DNA from: Vairimorpha necatrix | Taxonomy: Eukaryota | DNA length: 64,000 bases | Assembly (NCBI GenBank): GCA_036630325.1 | Contig: CP142732.1 | Span: forward strand, 124,001 to 188,000 | Reading direction: 5' to 3' | Part shown: piece by piece, positions 3,303 to 55,724 of the stretch | How positions within the stretch are numbered: position 1 is the stretch's first letter | Layout: each line of letters opens with the position of its first letter | The notes under the pieces: generated by a model | Told to the model about the DNA's origin: nothing | Databases searched by the model: none | What the model saw: only the letters and a program-made list of their open reading frames with translations | Program-made: the position numbers and the translations under genes

Positions 3303-6300
3303 GAATATCGTATAAAGTATAGCGGAACAGTTATCTTATGCTAACAGGTACAGCCTAGATAATAGAAATATATAATAGAATAAATTATTTAGAATTTTAG
3401 AAAATCTTTTGCTTTTATTTAGCCCCTCAATTCTCTAATTATTTAAAAATTTGTTATTTCATCCTTTCGTTATTACATTTGCTGTTTTAATAAAGAATGT
3501 GGTTGTTTTTGAAATATCTTTAAATATTTAAGTTATCAAACATTAAATCGTCCTGATAAACGAAAAACATTAATATTCTTCTTTTTGCGTTTGATTTGTA
3601 CTACAAGTAATTTCTTTACATTAAATGATTTAGTACATCGCATAATGAATTTTAGGTAACGTTTGAGGATACTGTCGATCTCAAAGAACGTATATTTGTC
3701 TTTTTTATGTGAAAGTGTTTTTATTATAACAAAACAGTAAAACATAAATCAAATTTAATATTTTGTAAACCGATGAAATTCTCTATTATAAAAAAAAAAG
3801 TAATATCGTAAATATTAAAGTTTGTTGTTCTTGTTGTGTCATTATAGTATTATGTTTTTATAAAAATTTTTTTGTAGAAAGTATTCAACGATATTATGAT
3901 AATTTACATAAAAATTTTTAATGAAATAAAAATATATCAGTATTTTATGTGGTCTGTTGGTTTCCCAACAGACTGAGAAGAATGTTTTTAACTATAATTT
4001 TTATTATTCTTTATACCCTTCTGAGCATTGGTTTCTTTTATGTTTGTCAAGGGGAAAATATTGTCTATTTTTCCTCCAATAACATTAAGAGAAGAAGGAA
4101 AAAAAATACTTATAGAATAGTATTCTTGGTATCCAGGGTCATCTTAGAACCACTGGAGATCTGTCCCTTGACATTTTACATACTAATAAAATTAACCCTA
4201 TTAAAAGCCAAAAAATAAATTTTACACAAACTTAATATTCTTTTTTTTTCAATGCACTGAAAAGTAACAAATAATTTTATAGTGCATTTATTCAAAAAAA
4301 TGTAAGTTAATTACGTTTCTAGAAATGCATATTAATGATCATATATTTAGCAAAGCATAAGTAGGCTCTGGAACCGCAAAATTTCAAATACTTTTCAAAG
4401 ATTTTAGCTTTTGCAACTATGAAACTATAATTTACTGTAAGAAGTTAATATCAGGAATTTACGTTCGTGTTCTGTTGACAAAACAAATCATTTTCATAAA
4501 TAATTAATCCGAATTTGAATTACAAAAATTAAAAAAGACATGCGTACAAAAACAATTAATAACAAATATCATGACCATAGAAAGAATTAATAAATGTTGT
4601 TATCTAACGAAGTTTATAATAGTCAAAATTTAAATAACAAACACTGATTGGTTAGAAAAAAAACTAATAATCGAGGCTATTTGTTAATAGGTACAAATTA
4701 CTTAAAGAATGCGATTAAAGTTTTTTGTGTTTTCTGATGCAAAAGGCAGTTTTATGTATAAACTTAAACTTAATTTTAAATTAAAGTACATTATCATTCT
4801 AACCCATTGTATTGTCATATATTTGGTTTTGAGTATTGTTTTAACTAGATTTAACAATGAACCATGACATTAGTTGCAAAATACTTAAAACTAAGCTGTT
4901 TATTTAATATCGCCATGTGGTTGCTGTGTTTTTTATAATATTTTTATGAACAATTTTTAAATGTTTATTCCAAGTATGTTTTTTCAAAAGTGAAATTAAC
5001 AAGGCAAAAATTAATTTGAATTTAACTTGTATAGAGTTAAAAATATAAAGTTTATAAACTTGCTTTATATGAAGTATCTTCGAAATTCCTAAAATGTTAT
5101 ATTGTGTCTTCTGGGCGGCATTTGCAGTACGAATGCTAACAGAAAATCGTTTTCTTTTATGTTATTTTCAATAAAGGGCGATAATAAGTAAAGTGATAAA
5201 AATGCAGTTAGACGTTAATAAATGTCACAGTCCGGTGAATATCCAAGGGTTATAACCTATAAAAACTCTTAAGTGAGGGAGAACCAGAAAATAGGAAAAA
5301 ATAAATGTTCGATCAAATGATTGCCCAAATTTTGTCTCGACCTTTGAAGGATAATTTTTTATTTATTTTTGAAATTTTGTGAGGGAATAATGAAAAAAGA
5401 AGAAAAGTAAAATAAACAAAAATATTGTTTTTATTCATTACCAAGCAAAATTAGATTCCTAGTACTGATTTCTTTTATAATAATTTCATTACCATCTTCT
5501 CTGCATAATTTAACTTTATTAAATTGTAATATGGCTATAACAACGTAGACTTCTACATCTTATTTTTCATAATTAAAATTACTATTGATAGTAAATTCGC
5601 TGTTCAAAGAGTGTCCAAAAGGACCATTTCTGTTATTTCAGACCCTAAGAAATCATTTTTATATACTTCTTTGTAACATTCTATTCACGGCAGTTTGTGT
5701 ATTGGTTCTAGTTGCATCATATTTAATTTTATTTAAAAAAGAATTGTGCTATTCAATGTATATAAATGTGCAGTTTCTTCTTTTGTTATTTGCATCTAGA
5801 ATATCTAATATACGTTCTTTCGCCTGCTCTTCGTCTTCACTTTCTCGTTCGTGATTTTCGCCATTAATCGATACCAGAATATCCGTAATTCTAGAATCGT
5901 CCATTATGTCACTTATTGTTCTACCAAATATTAAAGTGAATGGTGTTTGTCTCGTAGTAGAGTGTCTTACATGTTATTTGACCAGGTAACTTCTTCGCGT
6001 CGCTTGGTCATTGGCTCAAATCGTTTTTGTTTTCATTGTAAATGCAATCATTTACTTTAATGTTTTGTTGCATCATTCAATCTGTCCTTGTGTACCTGGA
6101 TATCTAGCTCTCTCCCATACGTGTCTTATTTTATGTTTCTGACATAAAAGGACGAGTACTAGATTTACAAATTTTCTGTCGTTATCGGTTTGAAGTATAT
6201 AACAGAACTTAAATGCTCTTAACAAAGTTTCAAAGGCATGATCACAATAATATCTGTTTCGTCAAGCAGTGATACCACCCAACAAAATTCGGTAAATGAA

Positions 6301-6961: not shown

Positions 6962-7387
6962 CAACTCTTTCTTGTTTTTCTACCAATTTTGCTAAAAAAG
7001 ACCAGCTTGTAGGAAGCAAAATTTTCTTGCCTTATTTCGTCCCTCAATTTTTTTTCATGCCCTAATATTAGAGAACTTTAACGTTAAATTTCAAAGACAT
7101 AAAAACAACCGTTTTAGTGGATATTTTTTTAACCATTGACGTACCCCAAGCGGAGGTACGTCTCAATGAGATTATTATATTGTTGTTTGTAAATGTTATT
7201 TTTACTATATTGAGATTTATTATTTTTATGGTTCATCATCCTCTCCTTTGGTGAGGGGCTATTTTTAAATATTTTAAATATTTAATTGTTTGTTAACAAA
7301 CAAACAAATGAATGACATTTAGTTTGAGAAAATATTATAAACTAAATGATTAATGTGATGATGTTTCACATTCATTAATAAAAGTCA

Positions 7388-10300
7388 TCACATCCTGCCC
7401 ACTCCTCCGAATTTGATATCATCTTCATGTATTTCATTTTCAAATCCCTCTAACTTATACCACTTTCCTTTCTTTCCTGCTTTAGTTACTGTCACTGGTC
7501 CTAAATATTGATCATCTAATTTCTTTGCTTTAAAGTTTCTCACGAAAACTTGTTGACCTATTTTGAAAACTGGGGACTTCCTATTTCCGCCCGACTTCTC
7601 GGTATTTTCTCTACAGTTAGTTTGTAATTTATCAATTTTAATCCCGAAAGGATCATATGGACTGTGTCCTATTAAAAAGGTAGTTGGAGATACTTTAAGT
7701 GCAGTATTATAGTTGTGGTTATGTCTTATGTGGATTCCTTCTGATACTGATTTCAGATTTCTACCTTTATATAACCTGAGGCATTGCGTGATTGTTTGGT
7801 TCAGCCTCTCACTGATACCATTACTACTTGGGTGATATATAGGAGTTGCTATCTTTTGTATTTCGTGCTCTGCACAATATTTAATTAACTTCTCTGAATC
7901 ATATTGAGTTCCATTATCAGATATAAAGGTCTTAGGCCTTCCATAAACTTCTATCCAGTCTTTAATACATGTAATTATACGCTCCGCTGTAACCTTATAT
8001 GTAAAGTATACTTTTAGCGTTCTCGTATATACGTCTATAATAGTGATATAATATCCCTTATGACATGTACCGTTATGTATGTAGTTCTCTAGACTAAATG
8101 GTCCATAGATGTCACTCGATATCTTTTCGAATGGTGCAGAGGCTACAATACTATTATAAGATCGGTTTTTTTTCTTATTATTTTTCGTTCTGATGCAATT
8201 GATACAGTTACTTGTAATTTCTTTAATTAACTTTTTTACACCTGTAACTTTGAATATATGCTTAATATTATTGTAAAGAATTGTAGATCCAACGTGTATA
8301 GTTCTTCGATGCATATAATCCAAAAAATTCCTTGACTGATCATTATCTATTATTATTCTGTTCTTCTTGTCTTTAGCCCAAACATTGGGGGTTTCTTTTG
8401 TTTTCATAACGAACTGATTAAGTTCATTTAAGTATCTCGTTTTGTCTATAACTTCTTGACTTGTCGTTAATATCAAATTTCTAGATAAGCTGTCAGCTAT
8501 TACGTTCTTTGTGCCAGATATGGACGTTATTTTGATATTGAACTGGTTCAATATTAACTTCCACCTTTCAATCCTGCTAGATATTTGCTTGTTCGGTAGT
8601 AAACAGTTTTTATTATCAGTAGATACCTCTACATAGTAACCTAATATGATATTTCTGAAATGATTTAACGTCTTAATAATAGCAAATAATTCCTTTTCGA
8701 CTATTGAATAGTTCTTTTCGGTACTGTTTAGCTTTTTGCTGTAGTATCCAAGTATTCCTCCTTCTTGAAAGAGTACACCTCCTATGCCATTATTCGAAGC
8801 GTCGCACTGTATAACAAATTTCTTCGTGTAGTCTGGCAACTTAAGTGTAGCTTTACTAATATCAACTGCGATTTGCGCTACTATATCTTTGTGTTTGTCA
8901 GTCCAAAGTATTCCTGTATTTGTGTTCTTAAGCAGTTCTGTAATGTTCGCAATTTTATCACTCAAGTTAGAAACATAAGGTCTGTACCAGTTCATTATGC
9001 CAATTATTCTTTGCAGCTCCTTTTTTGATTTAGGGTTTCTGAGTGCTAACAATTTCTGAATGCTCGTTAGTTCTGGTTTCATAGTATTTTCACAAATCAC
9101 GTTTCCTAGTATCGTGGTATTATTAGTAAAAAACTCGCTTTTTTCAAAATTTATTGCTACTTCATAACTTTTGAGTCTTCTTAAAATTTTTGACACGGTT
9201 TTTATATGACTTTCAAGGTCTGGTGAAAAGGCCATTATATCATCAATGTAAACAAATATATTATCTATGTCTTCTAGTATTTTGATGATTGTTTTTTGAA
9301 AAATTTTAGGTCCTGAACGAATTCCAAATGGGACCCTTTTGTATTGGTATTGTCTTCCCAATAATGTAAACCCCGTAAATTTCCGACTTTCGGGTTTTAT
9401 GTATAGTTGGTTGAAACCGTTCTTCAGATCGATTTTTGTATACCATTTAGCGCTTCCCATTTGCATAATATTTTCTGTTATATTGGGTATTGCCGCAATC
9501 TCATCTATGACATATTCGTTTATTTCTCTATAATCGACCACCAGTCTCAAATCTTTATTCTTTTTTTCTATTAAAAATGCCGGGCTGGCATATGGCGAAT
9601 CTGAGAGTTCGATTATATCATTTTCTAGTAACCTTTGTAGTTCTCGTTTAGCTCCGACTGTATGTTTATGTGGAACACTGTAGAATTTTGGTTTAGGTGT
9701 TTTAATGTCTTGTCTCATCCTTATTTCTATCGGTTCTATTTTTATTTGTTTATAAGAAGAATTGGTTTTTACATATGAATAAATATAACGTTTTAATTCG
9801 TCGTTATTAAGATTTTCTAAAGACAGACACAGGCTTTCAATTAAAATTTTATCTAAATCTTCGATGTCTGATTCACTGTCTTCTTGGTTCTTTGTACTGA
9901 TCACATCACCGTTGATTATTATAGTCTGATTCTTATAATTCATTATTACTTCGTTACTACTAAGAAATTCGTTTCCTAATACAAATTCGACTGGTAAGTT
10001 ATTCAGTAAGTAAAATTTAACTACGTGGCTTGACTTAGCTCCTATTATTTTAATTTCCTCATTTACTGTCTCAGTACACTCTTCCATGTCATCATTTCCG
10101 TATTTTATAGTTATTGGAGAATCCTCGACGATAGGTATTTTTAGCTTAAGGGCAACTTCTCTCTTTATGAAGTTCCTTGAAGCTCCCGAGTCCATAAAAA
10201 ATGACGTTTGGTATTTTTTAATTACCCCTTGTAGTTCGGGTGTTTTAGTATTTATTCCTTTCTCGCTAATAATCAAGTTCCTAGTCTCTCCTTTCTGTTT

Positions 10301-11197
10301 TTCATCCCTATTCTTAATTTTTTCCTTAATAAATTTCTGGTAGGTCTCGCAATCTTTTGAATCGTGATCATTCTTCTTGTGGTATTTGCACCACTTGTTA
10401 TTGTTTACTGCCTCTAAAGTCTCTTTATAGGGTTCTTTCCTTATAGGATCAAAAACTTTCTTCTCTAGTATCACTTGTTTAGATACTATTTTCTTTTCTA
10501 ACGTGTAAAGAAATCTAATTGCATCTTTATAGTCTTTAAATTCATGCTTGAAAAGCTCTCCATCTGTATATGGACCAAGTCCATTGTAAAAGGTCTCTTC
10601 TACTCGCCTATTGAACTCTGTTTTTGAGAGTTTATTAATTACGGCATAAATGTTAACTAGTTCTTTAATTTCTTGGATGTATTCTTGGATGGTTTCATAG
10701 CTTAATTGTTTAATAGAAGCTAGTTCTGTTAATATGCTTCTGCTATGTTCTATCGGAAATCTAAGACCGATCAGATAATCGCGTGTGGAGAAAAAATCTT
10801 CCACTATCCTCTCTTGCTCGATCAATGAGTCTTTACTCATTTTCCTTATTACCATCATCAGCTGTTTGGGTTTCCATTGGTTTTCTTCTGAGATTTTTTC
10901 GATCTCTTTTAACCATTCTATAATATCTATTGTCCGTATATCTTCAATGTAATAGATATCTGTAGTGAACCTTTGTTCTAAACCTTCTATTTTGGTTTCA
11001 AATGTAATATATTTTCCTTTTAGTTTTTCTGCCTGCTTCCCTTGGTATTTCGACAGTTTCACCTTGCTTGGGATTTCACTCGTTGAATTCAACTTGACGT
11101 ACCCCAAGCGGAGGTACGTCTCAATGAGATTATTATATTGTTGTTTGTAAATGTTATTTTTACTATATTGAGATTTATTATTTTTATGGTTCATCAT
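7388..11197 (-). CDS. Gag-Pol polyprotein (Gag, CHHC knuckle, aspartic protease, RT, RNase H, integrase)
   Basis: WCKYHKKNDHDSKDC; FMDSGAS; LVVDYREIN and YIDD; IQCDAS...EKELFAI; integrase HHCC, SDIYGP, ISDNG, SNGISER. Ty3/Gypsy domain order. Confidence 0.97.
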   Translation of the reverse strand: MMNHKNNKSQYSKNNIYKQQYNNLIETYLRLGYVKLNSTSEIPSKVKLSKYQGKQAEKLKGKYITFETKIEGLEQRFTTDIYYIEDIRTIDIIEWLKEIEKISEENQWKPKQLMMVIRKMSKDSLIEQERIVEDFFSTRDYLIGLRFPIEHSRSILTELASIKQLSYETIQEYIQEIKELVNIYAVINKLSKTEFNRRVEETFYNGLGPYTDGELFKHEFKDYKDAIRFLYTLEKKIVSKQVILEKKVFDPIRKEPYKETLEAVNNNKWCKYHKKNDHDSKDCETYQKFIKEKIKNRDEKQKGETRNLIISEKGINTKTPELQGVIKKYQTSFFMDSGASRNFIKREVALKLKIPIVEDSPITIKYGNDDMEECTETVNEEIKIIGAKSSHVVKFYLLNNLPVEFVLGNEFLSSNEVIMNYKNQTIIINGDVISTKNQEDSESDIEDLDKILIESLCLSLENLNNDELKRYIYSYVKTNSSYKQIKIEPIEIRMRQDIKTPKPKFYSVPHKHTVGAKRELQRLLENDIIELSDSPYASPAFLIEKKNKDLRLVVDYREINEYVIDEIAAIPNITENIMQMGSAKWYTKIDLKNGFNQLYIKPESRKFTGFTLLGRQYQYKRVPFGIRSGPKIFQKTIIKILEDIDNIFVYIDDIMAFSPDLESHIKTVSKILRRLKSYEVAINFEKSEFFTNNTTILGNVICENTMKPELTSIQKLLALRNPKSKKELQRIIGIMNWYRPYVSNLSDKIANITELLKNTNTGILWTDKHKDIVAQIAVDISKATLKLPDYTKKFVIQCDASNNGIGGVLFQEGGILGYYSKKLNSTEKNYSIVEKELFAIIKTLNHFRNIILGYYVEVSTDNKNCLLPNKQISSRIERWKLILNQFNIKITSISGTKNVIADSLSRNLILTTSQEVIDKTRYLNELNQFVMKTKETPNVWAKDKKNRIIIDNDQSRNFLDYMHRRTIHVGSTILYNNIKHIFKVTGVKKLIKEITSNCINCIRTKNNKKKNRSYNSIVASAPFEKISSDIYGPFSLENYIHNGTCHKGYYITIIDVYTRTLKVYFTYKVTAERIITCIKDWIEVYGRPKTFISDNGTQYDSEKLIKYCAEHEIQKIATPIYHPSSNGISERLNQTITQCLRLYKGRNLKSVSEGIHIRHNHNYNTALKVSPTTFLIGHSPYDPFGIKIDKLQTNCRENTEKSGGNRKSPVFKIGQQVFVRNFKAKKLDDQYLGPVTVTKAGKKGKWYKLEGFENEIHEDDIKFGGVGRM
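11082..11093. other. Perfect 12-bp palindrome GTTGAATTCAAC at the expected PBS position of element A
   Basis: Lies 1 nt inside the 5' LTR boundary (11095). No TGG-initiated tRNA-complementary tract there. Confidence 0.9.
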
Positions 11198-13333
11198 CCT
11201 CTCCTTTGGTGAGGGGCTATTTTTAAATATTTTAAATATTTAATTGTTTGTTAACAAACAAACAAATGAATGACATTTAGTTTGAGAAAATATTATAAAC
11301 TAAATGATTAATGTGATGATGTTTCACATTCATTAATAAAAGTCATCACAACCATATAAAGAAAGTATTTTAAGTGGGATATCGCTCCGACTGAATTTTT
11401 TTCACTTCTAAATAGCTTTAAAGGAAAATCGCACCGAACGGTTACAATAACTATCTTATATATTTGTTAATAGTTTTATGTAATACTCCGATCACTTTCT
11501 TTTTTTGAATTCGCTTTTATAATTGCAGGCACTAAAAACAAATACGATGTTGTGTCATTTGTTAATAGATCGATTGCGAAAAGTTTTATATTGTCAAACA
11601 AATCGTGCACAAGTAAAGTTAGCATTTATTTCAAGAAATTAAATTATATTTTATTTCTTAACATTGTGTTTATAATTTGTTGCACATAGTTTTTTTTGTT
11701 GTATTATGAAGTAATATTAAATCTTTTAAATAATCAAAAATTCCTCTGCGGACAAGCCCTATGAATTATCTTACCCTTTAAGTAAGTATTACTCGGCAAA
11801 ATCTTTAGAATGAGAAATTAGTTTTTAATTATGTGTAAAGCAGTATTAATACACATAAGACATTCTATTATATATTCACAGATTTAATATTTAAGATTTT
11901 AATATTTAAAGTTATGTGAATTCATCCATAGTTAATATCTAAACTGTCGTGCTGCTGATTTTATCGTGTTTTATATATATTTAATGAAAATACTATCAGA
12001 GCTAAAATGAAAGGTAAAGTGAAAAAATACCAGGGAGATTGCTGAGATTTAAATCTATCAACTATGAAAGTCAATAATAAATGTGAGGATATTAGATGTA
12101 CAGTAAAAGGAGACCGGAATAATACCATCCATCATTGAAAGGTGGAATCTTTATGTGTGCCAAAACATTAAATATTTTGCTTTAATAAAGAAAAAAATAC
12201 TTGTTGGCTCATTAAAACATTTAATTTTTTTAAATACATTTATTTTATATAATCTCTAGATAAAGCTTTTAGTTTATCAATGATGTTTTTAATGTGCTTA
12301 ATCCGTTTTTTAAGAATTCTTTTACTCTCAGAAGGAAGAGTAAAAAAAATTATGGTTTTTAAATAATGGGCAAAATACTTAAAAAATGAAGAAAGATATT
12401 GGCTCTTAATTAAACATAAAGTACAATAAAATTTTTTAATCTATGCAAATATCCCTTGAAGCTTTGGCTTTAAAAAAAAGTATGCTCAAAACAAGAAAGA
12501 GCAGATTATGTAGATGAGTAAAAACGAATAATTACTAGTTAAGAAATATAGTTTTAATGTGTATTTATGATCATTTAGCTCTTATTTTGCATACGATTTG
12601 TATAAAATTGATCTATAATTATATTCCTTATATTTTTGATTCTTTTAACTCAATTTTGGCCCTTTCTTTACTTAAGATTTATTCCGTATGAAAGCTCAAA
12701 TATTTTTTCTATTTTTCCATTATGCTTGATGTCTTTCTTTTATTTGGTACAAATATGTTCATAGACCATGATTGTCAACTCCTTTATACCAGTGTCCAAG
12801 AAATGCCTCAATTGAACAATTTCTTATTCATTGTAAGTAATAAATTGCAGTATTATTGATGTTAAAATTGCAATGTATTTTAAATATTGTAAATATGGGA
12901 TATGTTTCTATTATAATTGTAAGGGGTATATATAAATTATTTAAGATTCCCGCCCAAACCAAAATAAAAATTAATTTATGATAAAAAAAAATACTAAAAT
13001 TTTACTAATATTAAGAGTAATTGTTTTTATTTTTAAATATTAAAAAGTTAATTGTATAATAAAAATTAATTAAAAAACAATTTGATTAATTAAATATAGT
13101 AAAATATTTATAAAATATTTTTCATAAAGATTAACCTAGAATATAAGATTTATTTAATAGTTAACATCCTGTTTTTTTAATTTAGTTTTCTTGGTATTAG
13201 ACGAAATACAAAAACTTTTATTATTTTCTTATTACTTCAATTTCGTATTGTTAAAATGCTTTAATTTATTCAATTTGTGATGTTTAAAAGTTACATTTGT
13301 TTATAAATAAAAAATCTATTATTAGATACCATA

Positions 13334-13804
13334 ATGAATTACAAAAAAATAAAAGAGGAGAATGAAGAATATCTCAACAAGAAGTATCAAAAGAACATTG
13401 ATATTCATCAATCTCCCGGATTTTATCATAAACCCACTATTTCAAATTATGGCTCTTACCCGACAATTCCTTTTGGATATGAGGAAAAATATTTTCAAAA
13501 ACATAAAGTTGAGAAAGTTAAAAGAAACAAAATACAAAATGTGATAACAATCAATGGACAAAGTTATTATAGCAGAGATGGTGATTTTTATGAAATATTC
13601 TGTTGTGATTATCCAGGTTGTTTTAAAAAGTACATAAGTAAATATTCTTTAAAATATCATATTGAAAAGGGACACACTTCAGATAACCTTGATGTTAATA
13701 AGCCATATGCTTGCAATTTCTGTGGATGTAATAGAAGGTATAAAAATAAGAGCACATTGATAAAGCATGTTGCTGATACTCATTACAAGAAAAATGATAA
13801 TTAA
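13334..13804 (+). CDS. Two-finger C2H2 zinc-finger protein, Sfp1-like finger pattern
   Basis: CDYPGCFKKY...LKYHIEKGH and KPYACNFCGCNRRYKN...H...H. A same-length paralog lies at 28816-29286. Confidence 0.88.
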   Translation: MNYKKIKEENEEYLNKKYQKNIDIHQSPGFYHKPTISNYGSYPTIPFGYEEKYFQKHKVEKVKRNKIQNVITINGQSYYSRDGDFYEIFCCDYPGCFKKYISKYSLKYHIEKGHTSDNLDVNKPYACNFCGCNRRYKNKSTLIKHVADTHYKKNDN

Positions 13805-20809: not shown

Positions 20810-23800
20810 TGTTGAGATTTAAAAAATTATATTTTATATCCTTAATTTTAGAATAAATATGTTTATGGTGGAGAATATAATGAACGAGATAAACAAAGAC
20901 AATATAATTGTAGAAATTAGAATAGCAGAGGCTCCGAGTAGTTGGGCAAAAACGACCAATAAGGAGAAGTTAGATTTTTTTATAAGCAGACTTAACTCTC
21001 ATATTGTAGATTGGATTGTAGGACTTTTAAAGTCACACGGAAAACCGCTTTAACGTTTGAAATCTGGAAAAATAAAGTAGAACAAGAATTTGAGAATAAA
21101 ACATTGCTTTTTGACATTTACAATATGAAGCAAAAGGAAGAACAAAAAGTTGTTGATTTTATTGAAGATGTAGTTTCTAAATGAAATTTCCAATTTCGAC
21201 AAAAGAAAAATTATTAGATCAGGAGTAGATAAAAAGTTAAAAATGATTAAAATTTTTTTTACGACCCAATATGAGATCAACAAAGAATTTTACGAAATAT
21301 TAAATGAAATGGAGAACGAAGCATTATTGAATATCAAGTTGGCTGGTTTAAGACTTACTAAACAGAACCAACCAAATACATGCTTTAGATGCAGAAGGCC
21401 AGGACATTTAGCTAAGGATTGTAGGGTGAATCGAAATAATAAACAGGCTAATGATGATCGAAGGAATATTAATGAGATTGAAAAGGATAGTCAGGAAGTA
21501 GATCAAAGCTTTATTACGAATAAAAATAATTTTATTTATGTTGGGACTAAAAAAGTCCCCGTGGTTTTTGATTCGGGTACGGCCTACAACTTTATCTCTC
21601 TTCAAGCTGTCTATGATTTAAAATTGAAACTCAATAAGAATATGAATGTTTTGAAATTTTTCACATGTCTTGATGAAGAATTTCTAGTTGAAAACCATGT
21701 TATTGAGGAATACAAATATGGTAATAGAATATTTAAAAGCAGAATGTATGTTTTACCTAAAGTAAAAAATTTTAAAATGTTAATAGGAAAAGATGATATT
21801 TGTAAAGTTTTTCGACAATTGAGCAATAGAATTTGTGAGATCAATACAAAACCAGGAGAGAAGGTAATAGAACACGTTTATAGTTTACCAAAGAAATTGG
21901 AGGAAGGAATACAAAACTCTATAAATGAGTTATTAAAAAACGGGCATATAAGGAAATCTAATTCAACATGGCTAAATAACCTTAGGCCAGTGATCAGACC
22001 GGATGGATCCATAAGAGTTACTACAAATTTAATAGCGCTCAGCAGATTGGTAGATCTAGATAATTATTTCCTCCCCAATATTGAAAGACTTATATACAGT
22101 CTTAGAGACATAAAATATATTAAAAATTAATTTAAAAGATGGATTTTTCAAATTAAATTGGCTGAAAAAGACAAACACAAAACCGCTTTCAGATTTAATT
22201 ATTTATTATACGAATGGAACGTAATGCTCATGGGGTTTAAAAATGTACCAGCCGTTTTTCGAAGGTTTATGGACAACGTCCTTGAAGAAGAAAAAGGGAA
22301 AAATTGCTTTGTTTATGTTGATGACATCCTTGTTTTTGGTAGGAATGAAGAAGAACATGATACAAGCTATACAAAGGTTATTAACAAGCTACAAAAATAT
22401 GAGCTACGAATTAACGACTCAAAGACTATACATAAAAAAGATAACATAGAATTTTTAGAACATGTTATTGAATATAACAAGATAAAGCCGAAATTTTCGG
22501 CTGAACAAGGAATTTAAAGTATAGAAAGACCAAATAATAGAAAATCTTGTACGGAATTTTTAGGATTGTTTATTACTATCGTAAATTTATTCCACAATGT
22601 TCAATCATTGCCGGGCCATTGTATGATTTACTTAAAAAGGATGTTGTATTTAAGTGGGAAGAGAAAGAAGAAAAAGCTTTTAAGAAATTAAAAAATATAT
22701 TGAGATCACGCGTGGTTCTATCCCAGCCCAATTACAAAAAACCTTATATTTTGGAAACAGATGCATGCCAGTCAGGAATAGGAGCTATCCTCTCACAAAA
22801 TCATGGAAGTGGTCCAGTACCAATTGCTTTCGCTTCAAGAAGATTGTTACCTACTGAGATAAACTATGGAATCAGCGAAAAAAAATGTTTACCGATGTTA
22901 TAGGGATGAAACATTTCAGATATTATCTCTATGGAAATGAATTTACTGCAGTCACTGATCATAAGGCCCTAGAAACACTAAATCGGGGAGAGATAAAATC
23001 TTTGCGGATCCAACGATGGTTAGACAAACTTAGTGAATATAATTATTGTGTCGTGTATAGAAAAAGAACAAACATTCCACATGTGGATTGCTTATCCAGA
23101 TCACCAAGACAAGAAATTTAGAGATTTAAAATCTAGAATTAGAAATGACCGAGGAAGACAAAAGAAAAATTATCCGTGATAAACACCTAGAACTTGTCCA
23201 TGGAGGTTATAAAGCAGTTCAAAATGAACTTAAAAAGAAATACGATTGGAAAGATATGGAAAAAATTGACTAAAGACGAGCTAAAGAGGTGTATTCGGTG
23301 TAAAATGTATAATATTAAAAGAGGGGATTGAATTTTATTTGTAAAGTCACATGCGATTGGAAAGAAAGTAGCAATAGATATTATTGGTCCAGTTAACAAC
23401 CAATATATCGTGTCTGGGATTGATTACTTTAGTCGATTGGATTTGGAAAGGTACTAAGTTCCAGGGAGAGTAAGAAAATTGTAAAATTTTTAGATATGAT
23501 AAATCAAAAAATTAAGATACATAAACTAATTTTAGATCAATCGAAAGAAAACCATAGTAAAGAAATAAGATGTTGGGCAGCAAGTAATAATGTCGAATTA
23601 CCTTATACCTCGCCATTTCACCACTAGTCCAATAGAAGAGTGGAAAGATTTAATAGAACAACACAAGAAGGAATATACAAACAAGAGGGAAAAGAAAATC
23701 TTAAAATTAAACTTTTAAAGGTTTTAGATGTATATAACAATATATATCATAGTAAGTTAGGTATGTCTCCGAATGATGCTTTAAACCCGACCAATTTCCA

Positions 23801-24125
23801 AAAGGTGAAAGAAAAACAATATGAGGAGATACTAAAATTCAATGAAAGAAATAAAAACCGAGAAACCGAACCACAATTTTCAGAGGGGGATAGCGTTATT
23901 ATAAAAACGGAAACAGGTGTCAAAAAGGAAGAACCCAAATTTAAGGTTAGAGGTTTAATTTTTAAAGTTTTAGAAACAACACATATCTGGTGAGGACAGA
24001 TAACAAAACTATTAAGCGACATTCTTATCAGCTGAAATTAATAATAGACGAATGTTTTTAAGAGGGGGATGTTGAGATTTGAAAAATTATATTTTATAAC
24101 CTTAATTTTAGAATAAATATGTTTA
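20810..24125 (+). mobile_element. Ty3/Gypsy element E with 56-bp LTRs, degraded
   Basis: Direct repeats 20810-20865 and 24070-24125 (2 mismatches), PBS TGGTGGAGAAT (tRNA-Ala-like), PPT AGAGGGGGA. CFRCRRPGHLAKDC, VFDSGT, YVDD, RNase H and integrase in broken ORFs. No TSD seen. Confidence 0.88.
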
Positions 24126-24893: not shown

Positions 24894-25721
24894 ATGGATC
24901 GTTTTTTCTTATGGTATATGTTTGTTTATTATATCGATTTATTTCAAACCATTGTTTATTGCAACTTATTTCACTACAGGGATCTGACAAGTAGGGGTAA
25001 TTTTATATCTGCTACGTTTTACCTATCATTTTTGCAAACATTTGGGTTTATCTCGTTATCACAGTTTTATTTTAAAAAAGAATTTACAAGTATACTAACT
25101 GTGGTGCTTTTAAGAGTGGAGGGATTGGTTGCTTATCTTTATATTAACATATCAAAAAGGTTTTGGCTACCTATAATTACGAATATACTAACTGATATTA
25201 TGTTGGCTTTCTGCATCTATTATTATTGGCCAGTGGTGTATAATATTATTCTACAAAGTTATAATAAAAAAATAGGAGTAGATATTAGGATAAAAGATGT
25301 CTATATAACACGCCACGTATACTCAAGTGTAAAAAGAATATCTTTTATTTTGTATTTGGTTTTAGTTTTTGTTAAAATTACAACACTTGAAGATAATCCC
25401 CTTGTAAAATACCAGTTTCATATATTAGCATTGCCTATATTTATAGTTAAAGTATTAGAAAGGGAAGAGGAAGAAGAAGAAAATAAAACGGCCAAATATT
25501 CTGTTATTTTGTTATTAATAACTATAAGTGGAATTTTGATTTTTACATCTATAATACAGTATTTTGGTAAAGTACATCCTGAATATAGATTACTAAATTT
25601 CATCAATAGTATTCATTTTACGCTTGCTACGTTCCTATCAATTGTTGATTACAATAACTATGGCAAGGGGTTGAAAGAGGCTATAAAATATAAGAAGATT
25701 ACTGCACTGAGAAGGTTATAA
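24894..25721 (+). CDS. Hypothetical multi-pass membrane protein (275 aa, about 7 hydrophobic segments)
   Basis: Long uninterrupted ORF in AT-rich DNA, CCC immediately before the ATG, AATAAA just after the stop, alternating hydrophobic and charged segments. Confidence 0.8.
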   Translation: MDRFFLWYMFVYYIDLFQTIVYCNLFHYRDLTSRGNFISATFYLSFLQTFGFISLSQFYFKKEFTSILTVVLLRVEGLVAYLYINISKRFWLPIITNILTDIMLAFCIYYYWPVVYNIILQSYNKKIGVDIRIKDVYITRHVYSSVKRISFILYLVLVFVKITTLEDNPLVKYQFHILALPIFIVKVLEREEEEEENKTAKYSVILLLITISGILIFTSIIQYFGKVHPEYRLLNFINSIHFTLATFLSIVDYNNYGKGLKEAIKYKKITALRRL

Positions 25722-28815: not shown

Positions 28816-29286
28816 TTAATATTTATGTCTTTGCAAATGTGTGTCTGCGACATGCTTAATTAATGTGCTCTTATTTTTGTATCTCCTAGTACATCCGAAA
28901 AAATTACAGGCATAAGGCTTATTAATATCAAGATTACTTGTTATGTGTCCCTTTTCAGCATGATACTTTAAAGAATATTTATTCATATATATTTTATTAC
29001 AACCTGGATGAACACAACAAAATACTTCGTGCACTTTGCCCTCCCTGCTGTAAAAACTTTGTCCATTAATTGTTATCATGTTCTGTATTCTTTCTCTTTT
29101 ATGTAAATAAAATATGTGATTCTGAAAATCACTTTTGTTATATTCATTGATACTTGTTCGATGCTGTTCAAAATTATCAATTGTTGGTGTATGATAAAGC
29201 AATGAGGATTGTTGCATATTGTGATGTTTCTCATTTTTCCTTCTCAAAATTTCTTGAATATCTGTTTTTATTTTTTTATAATTCAT
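28816..29286 (-). CDS. Two-finger C2H2 zinc-finger protein, paralog of 13334-13804
   Basis: CVHPGCNKIY...LKYHAEKGH and KPYACNFFGCTRRYKNKSTLIKHVADTH. Same 156-aa length. Confidence 0.88.
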   Translation of the reverse strand: MNYKKIKTDIQEILRRKNEKHHNMQQSSLLYHTPTIDNFEQHRTSINEYNKSDFQNHIFYLHKRERIQNMITINGQSFYSREGKVHEVFCCVHPGCNKIYMNKYSLKYHAEKGHITSNLDINKPYACNFFGCTRRYKNKSTLIKHVADTHLQRHKY

Positions 29287-32200
29287 TAAGGTATATAAAT
29301 TAAAATTTTATAATAAAATCAATATCTTTAGTATAAGCAGTTGATTAAGAGAGTGTTGTCATTAAAAAAAGAACAGGTTTTTTAAATTTATGAATCATGT
29401 CAAATGCATAAAAAAATTGACTTTTTACCAAACAATATTCAAATTATAAGATTTTGTATCATAAAAAACATGATGCTGATATTTTGATAGTTTTAACAGC
29501 TTAATTAAAGTCTATATTTAAAATTAAAGCATCGTCATCCAAGAAGAAACAAATCTAATTAAAAATTTTGCAAAGAACTGACTATGTAGGTTTTGTACAA
29601 GGTACTTTTCATTGCCTTTTAAAATGAAAATTTTTAAATTTTGCTAAATTTTTTAAGATGTCATTATTTAATTAATTATTAAAAACAATTGGTCAATATT
29701 ATCTGCTTATATTCATGTTTTTGGTATAATTAGACCGATCACACGTCTTCGTGTGAAGCGATCTGCATATATAATAAAATTTAAATACAAGTTAAATTTT
29801 AAAATTGTAAATTCTCACGAAATATTTATATTTTATGATAAAAGCACCTAAATTTGTACATAAATTGTGACAATTTTATTTCACATTAATAAATTCAAAC
29901 TTGTGTTACTATGATTCCCCCATTGAAGATGTCAACATTTAATTTATTTTGTTTAGAATTGCTGCGATCCATAAAAATTTTTACAAAAATAAAAATTCAA
30001 TTTTATTTCTCAGAATTTATAATATTGAAAAAACTATTTATAAATTATGATTTTTTATGTATTTAATTAATATGTATAAACGTTTTAATTTTAAATTACG
30101 GGCTTTTTTGTTGTTTGAATATGGCAAGGAATTTTATATACGTATTTCGAATATTTATAAAATCGAAAAAAAATCGTTTTTGCTTTTGTTACTGCATGTT
30201 TTTTAAAGCACGTGTAATAAACATGAGTACGTAATGTCATATTTGGTTCCAAATAAAATAATCTAAAAATTCAAATTATAAAGAAAAAAGTATACAAGAA
30301 TGCAAAAAAAACAACATTTTAGTCATTATTTTCTAAATATTAGTTTTTAAATTAATTATTACAAAAAGTAAATTACCGATGGTTTCTATTAGAATCTCGA
30401 TTTATTATTAAATATCGAACTTATTGCTTAATTCAACTAATTACACGTGTAAATTAATAAAATAAATAGTAATTGGGCGATTTTATACTCATTTAGTTTT
30501 TTTTACAAAATACATTTACGATTCATCTATGTTAAGTGCACCAATGTGCATACTTTCATTTCATTAATTTTTCGATCAATAATGGCCTACTTTTACATCG
30601 AAAATGTGTTCGACCAACATAATTAAGAGTTAGAATGTATATAGGGTTTTATTTCATATAGACGAATTTGGAAATTAAAAAATAAAAATAATCTTTTTCT
30701 CGACATGTAATATAACGAACCACTATATTACTACTGAGCATATACATATAAGCCTTTAAAACGCTTTTTCGACTTATGTGCTGATTCATAATTATAATAT
30801 TTTTTAACCGGAAAAAAAGCATAATGCATTCTTTCTTTGGAATTTTTGCAAAAATATATTTATTGTTAATTTTTTATTTATTTGTCGTGATGATATACAA
30901 GATTACTATATAAGATACATTCTCTTTGAAAAGTTTTATATTGCCTTTTACAAACACCTAAATCCCATCTATTTAATATGAATACAGAGTTTTTTTACTT
31001 TATCAAATCAGGCAGTTTACAAACGAATAAAATCTATTCTATAAAAAAAAACTCCAAACTACTCACTTTTTATATGTAAATATGTATTGTGTTTCTTCTC
31101 AATAATCTCGTGGGTCGAAATTATCTTTCTATTTTTCAATTTACCCAATATTTTTGAGATTTATATGATAAACATCATACGTCAGCTGTCAATACAAAGA
31201 TGTCAAAATTGTATGTTCGTTGACATGACTCAATAAACCAAACTGAATTTATTTAATAAAGATCAAAAAGGTTAATATAATTGATTTAAAGAGCTTGTAA
31301 TTTAACTATAATATTACAAATTAAATTTAAAATATATTTTTAAGGAAAGTAATGGAATTATTATAAAAACATGAAACATCATAAAAAAATAATAATTACA
31401 TATTAGTATTAATGAAAGATAAACAAAACTTTTACAATAAAAAAAGGCCTATATATGTGTAGTTTATGATAAATATTCAGTATCAAATTTACATTTATAT
31501 GGATAATGGTTTTATTTATTATCTTTTAATAGATGTCTGTAACTTTATGTTTTTGTTTGTAAATGTACTTTTTTGCATCAAAGTATCATAATTAATATGT
31601 AGATTGACAAAACAATTGTTATAGCATGGCATTTTAGAATAATTTTCATTATGCTCATATTTATGTAGTAAATTAACGTATTTTACCTTAAAACTTAAAT
31701 TTTTATTTGTGTAGTGAATTTTTCTATATACCATAACCATATTTTTCTTGTTAAATTAGGAGCTTATGAAGTTTATATCTTTAAAAAAGTTTTTATTGAC
31801 ATACTATACTTATATATTTCCATAACTTCAAGGAATATTTTTTCTTCATATGTTTATATTTATATAGTTTTAAAATAATAATAAGTCACTCATTTTTGAC
31901 GCGTTTACTTTTTAGTTACATATTATTACGCTTAATCGATGATTTATGCTATTTATTTGTTTAGAAAATAATAAAAAATATTCTTTCGCCTAATTTCCGC
32001 AACGTTATGACTATCAAAGTTTTAATCTCGCCGTTTCACACAAAGGCTGCTTTAAATACTCTTGTTTTGCCCTTTCTTTTGTTTTTTTTTCTACAGTTTA
32101 CTATCTTTTTGACAATATACATATTTATATATAAATAAACATTGTTGGATTGAAAAAATGGGCTATTTTATTGTCGCGCACTCGGAAGAATTTATGAAGA

Positions 32201-35692: not shown

Positions 35693-35980
35693 AAAACTTT
35701 AAGATGTTTTCATTGTTTCCCATGAAAATATTGATGTTTATACCTTTATCGTTATCTCTTCTTAATGATTCAACTATATAAATAAATTATGAAAAAAATA
35801 AAAATAAATTTTATAACAAGGTGTCTATAAAAATGAAACAAGGTTTCTATAAAAATAAAATGAGGTGTCTATGATATCCTAAATATCATAAAAATAATTT
35901 ATAAATATTTCCCTCCAAATTCTTCCAGTTTTCCCTCCAACATTTATTTAATAATTTTATCCGGAGAGGGGTACGGAGTA

Positions 35981-38900
35981 ATGGAAAGAAGATCTAATAT
36001 TAATAATAAAAATATTTTACATACTTTCCTAAGTGGTGGATACCACAAGTTAAATTTAACAAAGACGTATCCTAAACTAACCAAAAGGATAGAGATTAAA
36101 GAACAGAGAAACATGATCAGCTTCGAGATCAATGTTAAAGGCCTAAAGCAGCCTATTATCAAACAATTAGAGATTGTAAACAACATCGAGAAAACCAATA
36201 TGCTAGAATGGTTTCGAAAGTTCGAAGAGCTACGTAATAAACTGGAATGGGACGAGGAAGAGACTCTCCTAGTATTACAAAATTTAATTGAAAATAAAGA
36301 ATGGAAAGAAAAGACAGTTCTAAAAATTATTTAAAAAGTAAAGAGGAATTATTAAGTGTCGCATATCCACATCACTTATTTTCAAATCTGGGAATTAAAT
36401 TGTTAGAGATTAAACAAAAGAATTATGATTTGATAGAAGATATGTTTGTCGATATCCATGCCAAGCTTGAAGTGGCGGTTTTTTTAGAAAAATATACCAT
36501 AAGTGAATATGAGCGAAGATTTAATAAAATTTGTTTGAATGCCTTGTCTGACGCTACCAAAGACTATGTGATGAAATTAAGTATCAAGAGTGTCAAGGAT
36601 ATTATAAATCTATTGGTAAACTTGGAGAAAGAATTGGTAGTCAGAATTCAGAATGACTTGGAGTTATCAAGAAATGCCCACGTCGAGATAAATGAACCAA
36701 GACAGAGAAATGAGATGAATCGATGGTGTAGCTTGCATAGATCAAGAACTCATAACACAAGTGAGTGTTTCAGTAAAAATAGGCGAATCGAGAATAAGAA
36801 TAATAAGATTTACACAGATGAATTAAAAACAAATAAAAATCTTAAGTTTTCTCATTGTAAGGTAGTTTTAAAAGAAAAGTCCGAATATTTAACAGTAAAA
36901 CTTCCAATATCAATTAAGGGCCACACCGTAATCGCTATTTTAGATACAGGATGTACCAAAAATTTAAAAAGTTTAAAAAAGGTTAAGAAATTAGGTTTCA
37001 TGGCAAGAAAAGACAGAGAGTTTGTATTTATATTTGGAAACGGTTATCAGGAAAAATCAGATGAGATAATAGAAGAGAAGATTAGTATAAATAATTTAAA
37101 TATAAACATTGATTTAAGATTGCACGTGATAAAAGAATTATCAACAGACATAATCTTAGGAGTAGAGTTTTAAGTGAGAATCAAATTATTCTAAATTTTA
37201 TAACCCAAACAATACATCATAATAAGAATATTATTAACATGGTTAACGGATTACCTCAACCATTCGAAGAAAACAATGATTTATTAATGCAAAAATGCTT
37301 TTCAATAAATGAGGAAAATGTCAGCATGAAAAATACTTCAAAAATAATACAATATATAAAAAATAATGATTTGTATAAAGAGATGAAAATTAAAAAAGTT
37401 TCATTTGATATCAACACAAAAGAGGATTTGAAGTTGATAAATAAGAAATACACTATTCCACATAAATTCCTTATAGCGACTAAACAAGAGATACAAAGAT
37501 TGCTAAAAGAGAAAAATATCAAGTATAGTGAAAGTAAGTATAGCAGTCCAGCGTTTGTTATTGCTAAGAAAAATGACGAGATAAGATTAGCAGTAGACTA
37601 CAGAGAATTAAACAAAAATATAATAGATGAATTAGATGTTTTGCCCAAAATTAAAGATCTGATTAACGAGGTCAAAGGGGCAAAATATTTTACTAAAATT
37701 GATTTAAAAAATGGATTTAATCAAGTACCCATAGAAGAAAATTCTATGAATTTAACAAGTTTCAAAATTTTAGGAAACGTGTACAAATATACTAGAATCC
37801 CATTTGGTATTAAATCTGGTCCTAAAATATTCCAAAGGACCATCAACAAAATAATAGCTGAAATACCGAATGTGGTAGTATACATTGATGATATTTATAT
37901 ATACACCACAACCAAAGAAGAGCATAATAAGATTTTATGCCAAGTATTAGATAGGTTGGCTAGTTACGAAGTAAAAATTAACTTTGAAAAAAGCATTTTC
38001 GGAGTTAAAGAAGTTGAAATGTTGGGACTAATAATAAACGAAAAAGAAATTAGACCAAATGTAGCTGTTATTGATAAATTGGTGTTAAAATTAAATATAT
38101 CAAAACGCCGAGAATTACAGAAAATTTCAGGGGTATTGAATTGGTACCGAGAATTTGAACCAAATTTTAGTGCTAAAGTATTGAACTATACGGATAAATT
38201 AAAAGGAGCAGAACAAAAGATAGAACTAACAGATAAAGAAAAGCAAGATATAAAAGATTCGATCACGGAAATTAAAGAAAATGAAAAATAGTGTCCCCTA
38301 AATACGACGAAGAATTCTGGTTACAGACTGACGCATCTGATAAAGCCATGGGAGCAGTATTATTCCAAAAACATGGATGCATAGGATATTATAGTAAGAA
38401 GTTTACAGAAACTGAGATAAACTACACGATTGTTGAAAAAGAGATGTTCGCAATCTTACAGAGTTTAATATTTTTTAAAGGATGCATTCTGGGATATCAA
38501 GTAAAAATTATGTGTGATAACAGAAATTGCTTATTCGAAACAAAAAATAATAATAGTAGAATGATAAGATGGAAATTAAGGCTTAATGAATATAATTTTA
38601 CATTAGAAAGCATCGAACGAAAGAAAAACGTAATCGCAGACTATTTATCGCGAATGTCATCAGATGAAGTACTGCAAGTAAAGAGTAATAATGGAAGGGA
38701 AGATAATATATTACTAAAAGAGACGCCGGCAATTACAACAATTAAATAGAACGGTAAACTTTATATTAAGCCCAATGAAAGTGAAAATTTAGTCGAATAT
38801 GCACTTAAAAAGCAAGCATGCAGGGATGTTTGTACTATATAACAATTTGAAAGATTATTATTATATAAATAACATGAAAGAAGTCATAAGAAAAGTAGTT

Positions 38901-39679
38901 AACAGTTGTCAGAACTGTAAATTTAATAAAAAAATTAGCTATCACAGATTTGAAAATAAACTAAAAATTAAAGCAAGAGCGCCGTTTGATAAAATTTGTT
39001 CAGACATATATGGTCCAACAAAAATAAATAATAAAAAATGGTATATTATGACTATAATTGATGTTTACACAAGATACACAAAGGTATATAAATTAAGAGA
39101 AATTACAGATAAAAGAGTGGTAGAGTGTTTTGGAAAATGGTTTAATATATTTCACCATTTAAAAACAATAATTACTGATAACGGAACACAGTATACTAGT
39201 AATTTAGTAAAAGAATTTACTGATAAGAATGATATAAATCTTATACATGTTCCGAAATACCATCCACAGAGCAATGGTATCTGTGAGAGAACAAATAGCA
39301 CTATCTCTGAAATAATCAGATTATATAGAAAGGAATCTTTAGAAAACATAATAGAAAATATAGAGATTAGACTTAATAAGAACTATAGAAGATCAATAGG
39401 ATGTGCACCTGAAGAATATGTTACAGGTACCAATCAATATGATCCTGAAGACAGAATCCAGCTGAAAAAAATATCAAGCAGTAAGAAACCGTTACAATTA
39501 AGAAAAGTTTCGTCGAATCAAAAATCGGAGATAAAGTATACGTGAAAAACTTTCAAAGCAAGAAATAGGAAAAGGCATTTAAAGGGCCATACATAGTAGA
39601 ATTAGTTAGCAAAAATAACAGATGGATCAAAGTCAAGGAAAAATATGAATAGGTTCATATTGCGGATACTAAAAAATAA
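35981..39679 (+). pseudogene. Gag-Pol of element B, split by stops and frameshifts
   Basis: WCSLHRSRTHNTSEC, ILDTGC, VDYRELN, YIDD, LQTDAS, SDIYGP and ITDNG across six ORF pieces. Confidence 0.92.
36049..36060. other. Perfect 12-bp palindrome GTTAAATTTAAC at the PBS position of element B
   Basis: 1 nt after the 5' LTR end (36047). No TGG tract. Confidence 0.9.
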
Positions 39680-40262
39680 AATCTAAGGAGGGGCGGATTA
39701 TGATATCCTAAATATCATAAAAATAGTTTTTAAATATTTCCCTCCAAATTCTTCCAGTCTTCCCTCCAACATATATTTAAAAATTTTATCCGGAGAGGGG
39801 TACGGAGTTATGGAAAGAAGAAGTAATATTTACAATAAAAATATTTTACATACTTTCCTCAGTGGTGGATACCACAGTGTCTATAAAAATTAAACAAGGT
39901 TTCTAAAAAAATGGAACAAGGTGTCTATAAAAATGAAATAGACTGAAAAACAAATGGTGAAATTCATCTAAAGATTCATTTATTTAATTTTTAACCAGTT
40001 TCATTGGTTTTTTTCCCTTTTACCTATATATGTTATTTTTTAATCGGTTATTCGATAAATTTTCTATTATTTCCTTTGGCTCACCATAAAAAAAACTCAA
40101 TTTATTTATTTTTTTGTTTTCGCATTAGTGTCAAAATCTTTTTTTTATAACAACTAAATCCCCAATAGAAAAATCATTGATAGAATTATAAACACATTTT
40201 CTGTCCATTCAAGCTAAATTATCTTTCATTACACACTGAAACTTTTCCGGCATCGTGTTTAC

Positions 40263-41714: not shown

Positions 41715-41782
41715 GAAACAAATTAATGAAGGATTACAAAAAAATATAAATGATCTTCGCTGAAAATGAAATTTAAATAATA

Positions 41783-44857: not shown

Positions 44858-44893
44858 TAATATATAAAAAAAATGTGACATAATATTCATAAG

Positions 44894-53044: not shown

Positions 53045-53298
53045 TGTGGTGTTACCACCAGGGAGGCGGCCTGTTTGTAAATAGCACTCGATCGTGCTCC
53101 TCCCTGCAATATAATGTTGATTGTTATTATAATTATTTTTATTGTTTGATTTAATAGACTCCTTGTTTTCTCTTCTCAGTTTCATCCTTATGTGTTTGGG
53201 GTAAAATAAAAGGAAAATATTTATAGCAAAATATTTTCTTGAAAATTCATTTGAAGGGAAATAAATAAAAATAAAATAATGTGGTAAATAATACCACA
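53045..53298 (-). repeat. 5' LTR (254 bp) plus ~20-bp internal stub of another family, inserted in element G
   Basis: TG...CA termini with a terminal hairpin. Encodes MKLRR...STIECYLQTGRLPGGNTT. Insert flanked by GAAAT(AAA); removal restores the host frame DFNEEIKNEGIKG. Confidence 0.8.
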
Positions 53299-55473: not shown

Positions 55474-55724
55474 TGTTGTAGACTGTTAGTCTTCAACATT
55501 TATTTTATTTCCTTCCCTATCAAAACTATCATTGAATTTTCATGAATAAAATTTACTATAAATATATTTTCAGAAAAGGAAGGGTACACAAAAGGAGATA
55601 GATGAGAGGACCAAAGAGCGTCATTTTAGAGAGTTCAGAGGGACTGTAACAAATAAAAAACAATTTATTAAAAGTATTTTAGAATATTACTTTATAACCG
55701 GGAGGGTTTCCCCGGGATACCACA
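55474..55724 (+). repeat. Solo LTR (251 bp)
   Basis: TG...CA termini, TSD GATAC, ends GGATACCACA like elements B and H, encodes SILEYYFITGRVSPGYH. Confidence 0.88.

Follow-up and report, generated by a model that had tools for sequence, protein, structure and literature searches.

Our analysis of a 64-kb stretch of the Vairimorpha necatrix genome (contig CP142732.1; the whole stretch is hereafter called the window) identified three long terminal repeat (LTR) retrotransposons of the Ty3/gypsy superfamily, elements A, B and H, in which a perfect 12-nt palindrome occupies the primer-binding slot next to the 5' LTR. This suggests that A, B and H start copying without a transfer RNA (tRNA). We propose, giving it slightly less than an even chance, that the palindrome is the start site of the minus strand in a tRNA-independent microsporidian Ty3/gypsy lineage and that it works by self-pairing. 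The choice of a primer is a core replication step of LTR retroelements and retroviruses, and only two solutions have been demonstrated by experiment, the host tRNA and the 5' end of the transcript in elements of the Tf1 type. A palindrome in the primer slot has been reported once before, in fungal Copia elements, where it was left unexplained.

Element A is an intact Ty3/gypsy retrotransposon on the minus strand (7137-11350). Its LTR pair, found as 7136-7395 and 11094-11353, is identical at 259 of 260 positions, and the true LTR ends are set by a 5-bp target duplication, ATGGT, which is present on both sides (11351-11355 and 7132-7136). The open reading frame (ORF) starts in the 5' LTR, at 11197, and stops in the 3' LTR. 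Pfam domains were matched to the protease (PR, residues 324-413), the reverse transcriptase (RT; RVT_1, 543-698), RNase H (RT_RNaseH, 789-886) and the integrase (IN; rve, 1022-1123). The order PR-RT-RNase H-IN is of the gypsy type and not that of Copia, in which IN precedes RT. No integrase chromodomain was among the Pfam matches of element A at E <= 0.001. The features of this element are as follows.

11095-11350, minus strand: 5' LTR, TGTGATGAC...GGGGTACGTCA, member of the repeat pair, ends taken from the target site duplication ATGGT; contains the start codon at 11197
11094, minus strand: single A separating the 5' LTR's last base from the palindrome
11082-11093, minus strand: 12-nt perfect palindrome GTTGAATTCAAC in the primer-binding slot; codes for part of K-L-N-S-T
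11096-11120, minus strand: U5 hairpin read from the sequence, GACGTACC, a 9-nt loop and GGTACGTC; the last pair includes the penultimate LTR base
11060-11074, minus strand: leader segment (AUCCCAAGC A AGGUG) that in the minimum-energy fold can pair with U5 at 11101-11116, enclosing the palindrome
7388-11197, minus strand: single ORF for Gag-PR-RT-RNase H-IN, 1269 amino acids (P0001)
7393-7408, minus strand: polypurine tract GGAGGAGTGGGCAGGA, directly before the 3' LTR
7137-7392, minus strand: 3' LTR, assigned by the repeat pair and the target site duplication

The U3 region of the LTR of element A also contains an unrelated perfect palindrome of 18 nt, TTGTTTGTTAACAAACAA (11244-11261). It is located upstream of a stretch rich in A/T and of a run of CCCC, both of which precede the start codon.

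The 5' LTR of element A ends with ...GTCA at 11095, followed by one A and then by GTTGAATTCAAC. In elements B and H the junction consists of ...CCACA, one A and GTTAAATTTAAC. The palindrome thus begins 1 nt past the LTR end in 3/3 elements, and these ends, ...GTCA or ...CACA, are fixed by the 5-bp target duplications. The corresponding features of B and H are listed here.

35870-39876, plus strand: element B; LTRs 35870-36047 and 39699-39876, 94% identical; target duplication GTGTC; ORFs broken
36049-36060, plus strand: palindrome GTTAAATTTAAC of element B, with the spacer A at 36048
36033-36046, plus strand: U5 hairpin of element B, GTGGT-GGAT-ACCAC; its leader partner GTATCC lies at 36067-36072
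56244-63537, minus strand: element H; LTRs found as 56244-56470 and 63313-63539, 100% identical; target duplication CTAAT
63300-63311, minus strand: palindrome GTTAAATTTAAC of element H, with the spacer A at 63312
63314-63327, minus strand: U5 hairpin of element H, GTGGT-GGAT-ACCAC; its leader partner GTATCC lies at 63288-63293

Element B sits in an array of tandem repeats of about 24 nt (AAGGTGTCTATAAAAATGAAAC-like) at 35800-35869 and 39877-39940. Element H is the host of a nested insertion, a complete short-LTR element (59602-62788) with identical 49-nt LTRs and the duplication TGTTA, located inside its Gag/protease region. This insert explains the length of H, 7.3 kb, and its two RT-bearing ORFs.

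In all three elements the palindrome lies inside the Gag reading frame. An original prediction, made from the letters of the window alone, had described an LTR end GTCA followed by one A and a perfect palindrome in element A, the same geometry in B (36049) and H (63300), a compensatory exchange of G:C for A:T, and a change of the encoded residues from KLNST to KLNLT. We could read each of these directly. The junction of A is found at 11082-11095 and that of B and H as CA, A and GTTAAATTTAAC, A encodes the peptide VKLNSTS, B and H encode HKLNLTK, and the two differences between GTTGAATTCAAC and GTTAAATTTAAC stand at mirror positions, where A has G:C and B and H have A:U. The same prediction held that element A lacks a TGG tract after its 5' LTR while five other elements of the window possess a TGG-type primer-binding site. 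In agreement with this, no TGG occurs in the approximately 70 bases after the LTR of A, B or H, which thus show no site for the CCA at a tRNA 3' end, and all five TGG-type sites were located, 0-3 nt past the LTR.

With a G+C content of 22-38%, the window is AT-rich, and it is densely populated by Ty3/gypsy elements. A protein encoded outside these elements (24894-25721) shares 80% identity with a named V. necatrix protein, which identifies the host as V. necatrix or a close microsporidian relative. Of the eight LTR-to-interior junctions in the window, five hold a TGG-type site and three a palindrome. Among the TGG-type sites, TGGTGGAGAATAT occurs in two of the other gypsy elements, and TGGCGAACACAAGG, TGGGGGCGATACC and TGGCGACAACGAAG occur in one each. 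In a tree of the RT domain A, B and H form one clade (support 0.95), in which A shares 48-49% identity with B and H, and B shares 83% with H. Element D4, the sister of this clade, is of the TGG type, and its site lies 1 nt past the LTR if the 3' copy gives the true LTR end. In this region of D4 (49904-49931, minus strand) the site is TGGCGACAACGAAG at 49931-49918, and a G:C-rich palindrome of 10 nt, ACCTGCAGGT (49913-49904), lies 4 nt past it and could be a separate dimer site. The D4 LTR ends with ...ACGTCAA, resembling that of element A; its 3' copy and flanks (duplication CTTAT) suggest that the true end lies 2 nt further on. A homology between the site of A and the TGG-type site of D4, for which 11/17 bases agree by eye, was not upheld by alignment.

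The LTR end is set by the first base that is added to the primer, and the primer must therefore sit on the palindrome. The alternative offered in the original prediction, a dimerisation signal with priming elsewhere, is hard to keep for the same reason, since the LTR end marks the start of minus-strand DNA. Anything that pairs with a perfect palindrome must contain that palindrome itself, so the simplest source of a primer is a second copy of the element RNA. Searches for other partners agree with the earlier statement that no Tf1-style match to the transcript 5' end could be found. Within each LTR, the best partners of the Tf1 type were matches of 7-10 nt that are rich in G:U and not common to B and H, and scans of the whole elements A, B and H returned the site itself as its own best partner. 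No second box of at least 9 nt that pairs near the site was found in A, B or H, and the 64-kb window contains no tRNA genes or Rfam families. Runs of TGG also occur within U5, as TGGGGTACGTCA in A and as TGGTGGATACCACA in B and H. They were considered as the real primer site and rejected, since both LTRs contain them and the target duplication directly follows the 3' copy.

RNA structure predictions are consistent with pairing between two molecules. The predicted homoduplex has an energy of -14.0 kcal/mol for A and -9.4 kcal/mol for B/H, compared to -5.4 kcal/mol for the heteroduplex of A with B/H, while the palindrome folded as a hairpin is predicted to be weak (-1.1 kcal/mol in A, 0 in B/H). 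For folds of the leader, the dimer is predicted to gain 10.8-11.8 kcal/mol over two monomers. A U5 hairpin abuts the site in all three elements, with 8 bp in A and 5 bp in B and H, and closes on the penultimate LTR base; the hairpins of A and of B/H differ in wording, occupy the same place and cannot be aligned column by column. A further stem between U5 and the leader encloses the palindrome (GCUUGGGGU/AUCCCAAGC in A, GGAUAC/GUAUCC in B and H). Four of its pairs are shared between A and B/H, a fifth differs at both bases and a sixth at a single base; 75.8% of its cells are paired, which is not significant with three sequences. Since the U5 hairpin and the U5-leader stem overlap, they cannot form together.

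Perfect 12-nt palindromes as such are common in this AT-rich window, with 49 instances or 7.7e-4 per position, and the case therefore rests on position and conservation and not on the mere presence of a palindrome. The pattern GTTRAATTYAAC occurs three times in the window (11082, 36049 and 63300) compared to 0.07 expected, and none of 100 shuffled windows reached three, but the three sites are homologous and hence not independent draws. A near-match at 5015-5029 with one mismatch lies outside any LTR or ORF context and was set aside as a chance occurrence. Across A, B and H, 5/6 pairs of the palindrome are invariant and one is changed on both sides, so that 18/18 cells remain paired. Elements B and H are identical at 481 of 726 aligned columns (66%) over the LTR and the following 500 nt. 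Their longest identical run, 31 nt, comprises exactly the last 18 nt of U5, the single A and the palindrome, and it stops at the last palindrome base; by our own arithmetic, such a run has a chance of about 6e-4 at 66% identity. The second and third longest runs are 21 nt at the tip of U3 and 14 nt in a leader segment. The codons that flank the 31-nt run differ synonymously (CTA vs TTA before, ACA vs ACC after), and the palindrome is followed by G, A or C among A, B and H. It follows that selection acts on the nucleotides.

Since the palindrome site is coding, related proteins can be asked what they could encode. Relatives were found by an exhaustive profile search with residues 1-1000 of the element A protein, and of the 150 matches listed we took all 12 that start at query residue 30 or before and thus cover the site. 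The named relatives (4/10 looked up) come from Nosema granulosis (n=2), Dictyocoela muelleri (n=1) and V. necatrix (n=1). For each protein position we determined the longest perfect palindrome permitted by any synonymous coding, centred between codon bases 2 and 3. At the column of N37 of element A, all 15 rows (12 relatives, A, B and H) permit a palindrome of at least 12 nt, with half-lengths of 6-10, compared to 3.3% of 12,604 control positions in the same proteins. The residues around this column covary in the manner expected from a palindrome. In 10/10 distinct peptides with Leu at -1, position +2 is T, I, K or R, residues for which a codon starting with A is available, and in 4/4 with Met at -1 it is F or L, for which a codon starting with T is available. 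At the centre stands N, S or I, in keeping with AAT, AGC and ATA as codons and with AT, GC and TA as centres. When the right halves were re-dealt among the 14 distinct peptides, a mean of 5.2/14 permitted 12 nt and 0/5000 shuffles reached 14. A motif Y[LF]..G ... [LM][NSI]S is common to the relatives. The conservation of self-complementarity suggested in the original prediction stands within the window by pair count and across relatives by inference from protein sequences; the protein columns are palindrome-compatible in 15/15 rows, and covariation at the DNA level was read from A, B and H.

Word-based protein searches reached at best 34% identity with the whole protein and had no match for Gag residues 1-320. 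A metagenome scan returned 80 loci with 22-33% identity, none with the Gag motif or a tRNA gene; these are mostly single-LTR contigs, in which end repeats are assembly overlaps. No relative was found in a scan of viral contigs, and a scan of genome contigs gave four loci with 25-28% identity. Four sequencing runs (X1-X4), none of them recorded as RNA, yielded no new palindrome variants. In X1 one contig (382 nt, depth 22.5) covers 10900-11124 with two other letters and no differences listed inside 11082-11094, but it possibly stems from the window's own sample and is then not independent; a diverged contig of 107 nt, with 10 other letters over 11061-11128, also spans the site. In X2, from a differently coded organism, only pieces like the LTR of element A were present (11094-11152 and 11205-11350, contig depth 343-1900). 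These pieces stop at 11094/11095 and continue into unlike sequence (three contigs, agreement 0.63); they could be solo LTRs or belong to a different interior with the same LTR. X3 and X4 contained next to nothing that matches.

The palindrome in the primer slot is not without precedent. GalEa elements, Ty1/Copia retrotransposons of Pezizomycotina, have no tRNA-type primer site and carry a Conserved Hairpin Site with an unsolved mechanism (Donnart et al. 2017; PMC5445492). This site is a 10-nt palindrome that includes the last A of the LTR, occurs in the variants CTGATCAGT and CTAATTAGT, and pairs with a second conserved box of 9 nt located 12-41 nt downstream, with a fixed A/A mismatch (PMC5445492). 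As in GalEa, the palindrome of A, B and H replaces the tRNA site at the LTR end, the common variants differ by a mirrored exchange of G:C to A:T, and no partner of the Tf1 type was found. The GalEa site is conserved between distant families of one species (PMC5445492), and so is that of A, B and H. Unlike GalEa, A, B and H are Ty3/gypsy elements of a microsporidian, their palindrome has 12 nt, begins 1 nt after the LTR and lies in the Gag ORF, and instead of a second box there is an abutting U5 hairpin and a U5-leader stem that encloses the palindrome. In the literature searched we found no palindromic primer site in a Ty3/gypsy or microsporidian element, although the supplementary tables of PMC5445492 and PMC6317226, which lay outside this search, may hold more.

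Self-priming of the Tf1/sushi type is another known system to compare (Levin 1995, 1996; Lin and Levin 1997, 1998; as summarised in PMC7175516 and PMC6317226). In Tf1 the element's own RNA serves as the primer once RNase H has made a cut at the end of an RNA duplex (PMC7175516), and trans priming in Tf1 is named in a paper title given in a reference list (PMC7235257). The course proposed for A, B and H would likewise be independent of tRNA, use the element's own RNA as a primer and involve a cut at the end of an RNA-RNA duplex, and a U5 stem-loop lies next to the primer site in both cases. Unlike Tf1, A, B and H show no match of the primer site to the transcript 5' end within the LTR, the feature that defines the Tf1 type, element A has no detected chromodomain, and the site would pair with its counterpart on a second RNA. 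A further comparison is with Ty3, a member of the same superfamily, in which the complex that initiates reverse transcription dimerises via a 12-nt palindrome at the 5' end of the primer tRNAiMet (PMC5371799). That palindrome is G:C-rich, lies in the tRNA and acts beside a tRNA primer site, whereas here the palindrome is in the genome and no tRNA-type site exists. Retroviral dimer sites, including that of HIV-2 (PMC5874298), resemble the site of A, B and H in having a palindrome near or inside the primer site, where the RNA pairing of A, B and H is a prediction. Their variants can favour like partners, as the predicted energies of hetero- and homoduplexes would imply here (-5.4 vs -14.0 and -9.4 kcal/mol), but they coexist with a tRNA primer site.

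From the position of the palindrome, its conservation, the absence of a TGG-type site and of a Tf1-type partner, and the predicted stability of the duplex, we infer dimer formation, a cut, priming and trimming. Two copies of the genomic RNA would pair via the 12-nt palindrome and give a 12-bp RNA duplex that is bounded by mismatches on both sides. One or both strands would then be cut at the 3' edge of this duplex, for which the RNase H cut at the end of the RNA-RNA duplex in Tf1 would be the nearest precedent. From the new 3'-OH, synthesis would proceed over the single A and on into U5 and R of the partner RNA, and extension across this A would place the LTR end where it is observed. In the case of reciprocal priming, RNase H would shorten both primers to about the 12 paired bases. 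The U5 hairpin and the U5-leader stem may act like the U5-IR and U5-leader stems of retroviruses and Tf1. The junction characteristic of such self-priming would be an element RNA ending with ...GUUGAAUUCAAC joined to DNA that begins with T. The tRNA-independent priming suggested in the original prediction is partly supported, namely as regards the slot, the missing TGG, the missing Tf1 partner and the self-complementarity, while RNA pairing, cut and priming belong to the proposed part.

Several points weigh against this proposal. The case for priming was built from sequence, and the partner search covered element sequences. An RNA that is cut after the palindrome cannot supply the copy of the primer site for the second strand transfer, so that an uncut copy or a template switch would be required, and the model names no nuclease for the cut at the 3' edge of the duplex. 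Actual DNA comprises only three copies from two lineages with one compensatory pair, and a shuffle control of the pair count (58/500) is not significant with three sequences. As both changes are transitions, G:U wobble could allow a fixed partner to accommodate them. Since the site is coding, protein constraint may explain part of the conservation. The proteins of the relatives show what could be encoded and not their DNA, the permitted half-lengths in A, B and H (10, 7 and 7) exceed the real value of 6, and because the relatives are kin, the shuffle test overstates their independence.

The palindrome might instead be a dimer initiation or packaging site, or a structured platform for initiation, with the minus strand started by little or no base pairing. 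The start would then depend on a host RNA that matches over a very short stretch, on a protein, or on de novo initiation at a recognised structure, the situation left unsettled for the GalEa 'Conserved Hairpin Site'. Retroviral RNAs are well known to be linked by palindromes, one of them acting inside the HIV-2 primer site in vitro (PMC5874298), the authors of the GalEa study could fit their palindrome to no priming model (PMC5445492), and the sister element D4 combines a TGG-type site with the 10-nt palindrome ACCTGCAGGT 4 nt further on. All of the conservation evidence fits self-pairing and is silent on what primes. Known dimer sites, however, accompany a primer site and usually lie in a hairpin loop, while the slot of A, B and H holds nothing else: here a stable duplex is predicted and no separate primer site is present. 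We also know of no protein-primed or de novo start in an LTR element, which counts against this reading as well, and we regard it as unlikely.

We consider it improbable that a host RNA primes at the site and that its palindromic appearance is secondary. Such a primer could be an internal tRNA fragment, as in copia, Ty5 and FunCo1, or a small RNA; half-tRNA and internal-tRNA primer sites do exist (PMC6317226; PMC5445492), and the transitions between A and B/H could be tolerated by wobble to a partner with U and G. Against this, the partner of a perfect 12-nt palindrome must itself carry that palindrome. The anticodon and T arms of tRNAs have 7-base loops, are centred on a base and cannot hold a perfect palindrome of even length. 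When compared by eye, the four host tRNA 3' ends that can be deduced from the window's TGG-type sites gave no match. Moreover, the relatives imply differing centres (AT, GC, TA) and flanks (T..A or A..T), all palindrome-compatible, so that a different palindromic host RNA would be needed each time. Equally improbable in our view is a conservation that stems from the Gag peptide or from a role at the DNA level, such as the binding site of a dimeric protein, with the position at the LTR end irrelevant to priming. The site is coding, the motif Y[LF]..G ... [LM][NSI]S is common to the relatives, 12-nt palindromes are frequent (49 per 64 kb) and the U3 of element A holds an unrelated one of 18 nt. 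A role of this kind is at odds with the synonymous positions, which are frozen within the 31-nt run of B and H while the flanking codons differ synonymously, with the paired change that alters a residue (S to L), and with the peptide columns, which covary as a palindrome predicts (0/5000 shuffles). Some primer must still act at this spot.

Apart from A, B, H and D4, the window contains four gypsy elements with extremely short LTRs of about 38, 49, 56 and 73 nt. LTRs as short as about 38-73 nt are unusual. Each of these elements has a polypurine tract and a TGG-type site, with 5-bp duplications where checked (TATTA, TGTTA). The first is only about 3.1 kb long and has one ORF of 1006 amino acids that starts in the LTR.

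41782-44858, minus strand: short-LTR gypsy element
59602-62788, minus strand: short-LTR gypsy element, nested in element H
20810-24125, plus strand: short-LTR gypsy element
52021-55895, plus strand: short-LTR gypsy element

Additionally, an inverted pair at 13322-13784 and 28836-29298 was observed, the copies of which are 72% identical and contain an ORF of 156 amino acids with a weak match to a C2H2 zinc finger.

Since this arrangement recurs in a second superfamily and a second group of hosts, the palindrome itself is likely to be the functional component. Our model couples dimerisation with priming. As a tentative extension, we suggest that a microsporidian Ty3/gypsy clade (Vairimorpha, Nosema, Dictyocoela) may have given up tRNA primers and may prime from the co-packaged sister genome via the palindrome, so that dimerisation and priming would be one event. 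Microsporidian genomes are small and hold few element families, which makes the question workable on the sequence side; the host is an obligate intracellular parasite. If the proposal is true, the wording of the palindrome would serve as a family-specific lock, and together with the GalEa Copia elements it would constitute a third general priming mode of LTR retroelements beside tRNA and the Tf1 type, one that would have arisen at least twice.

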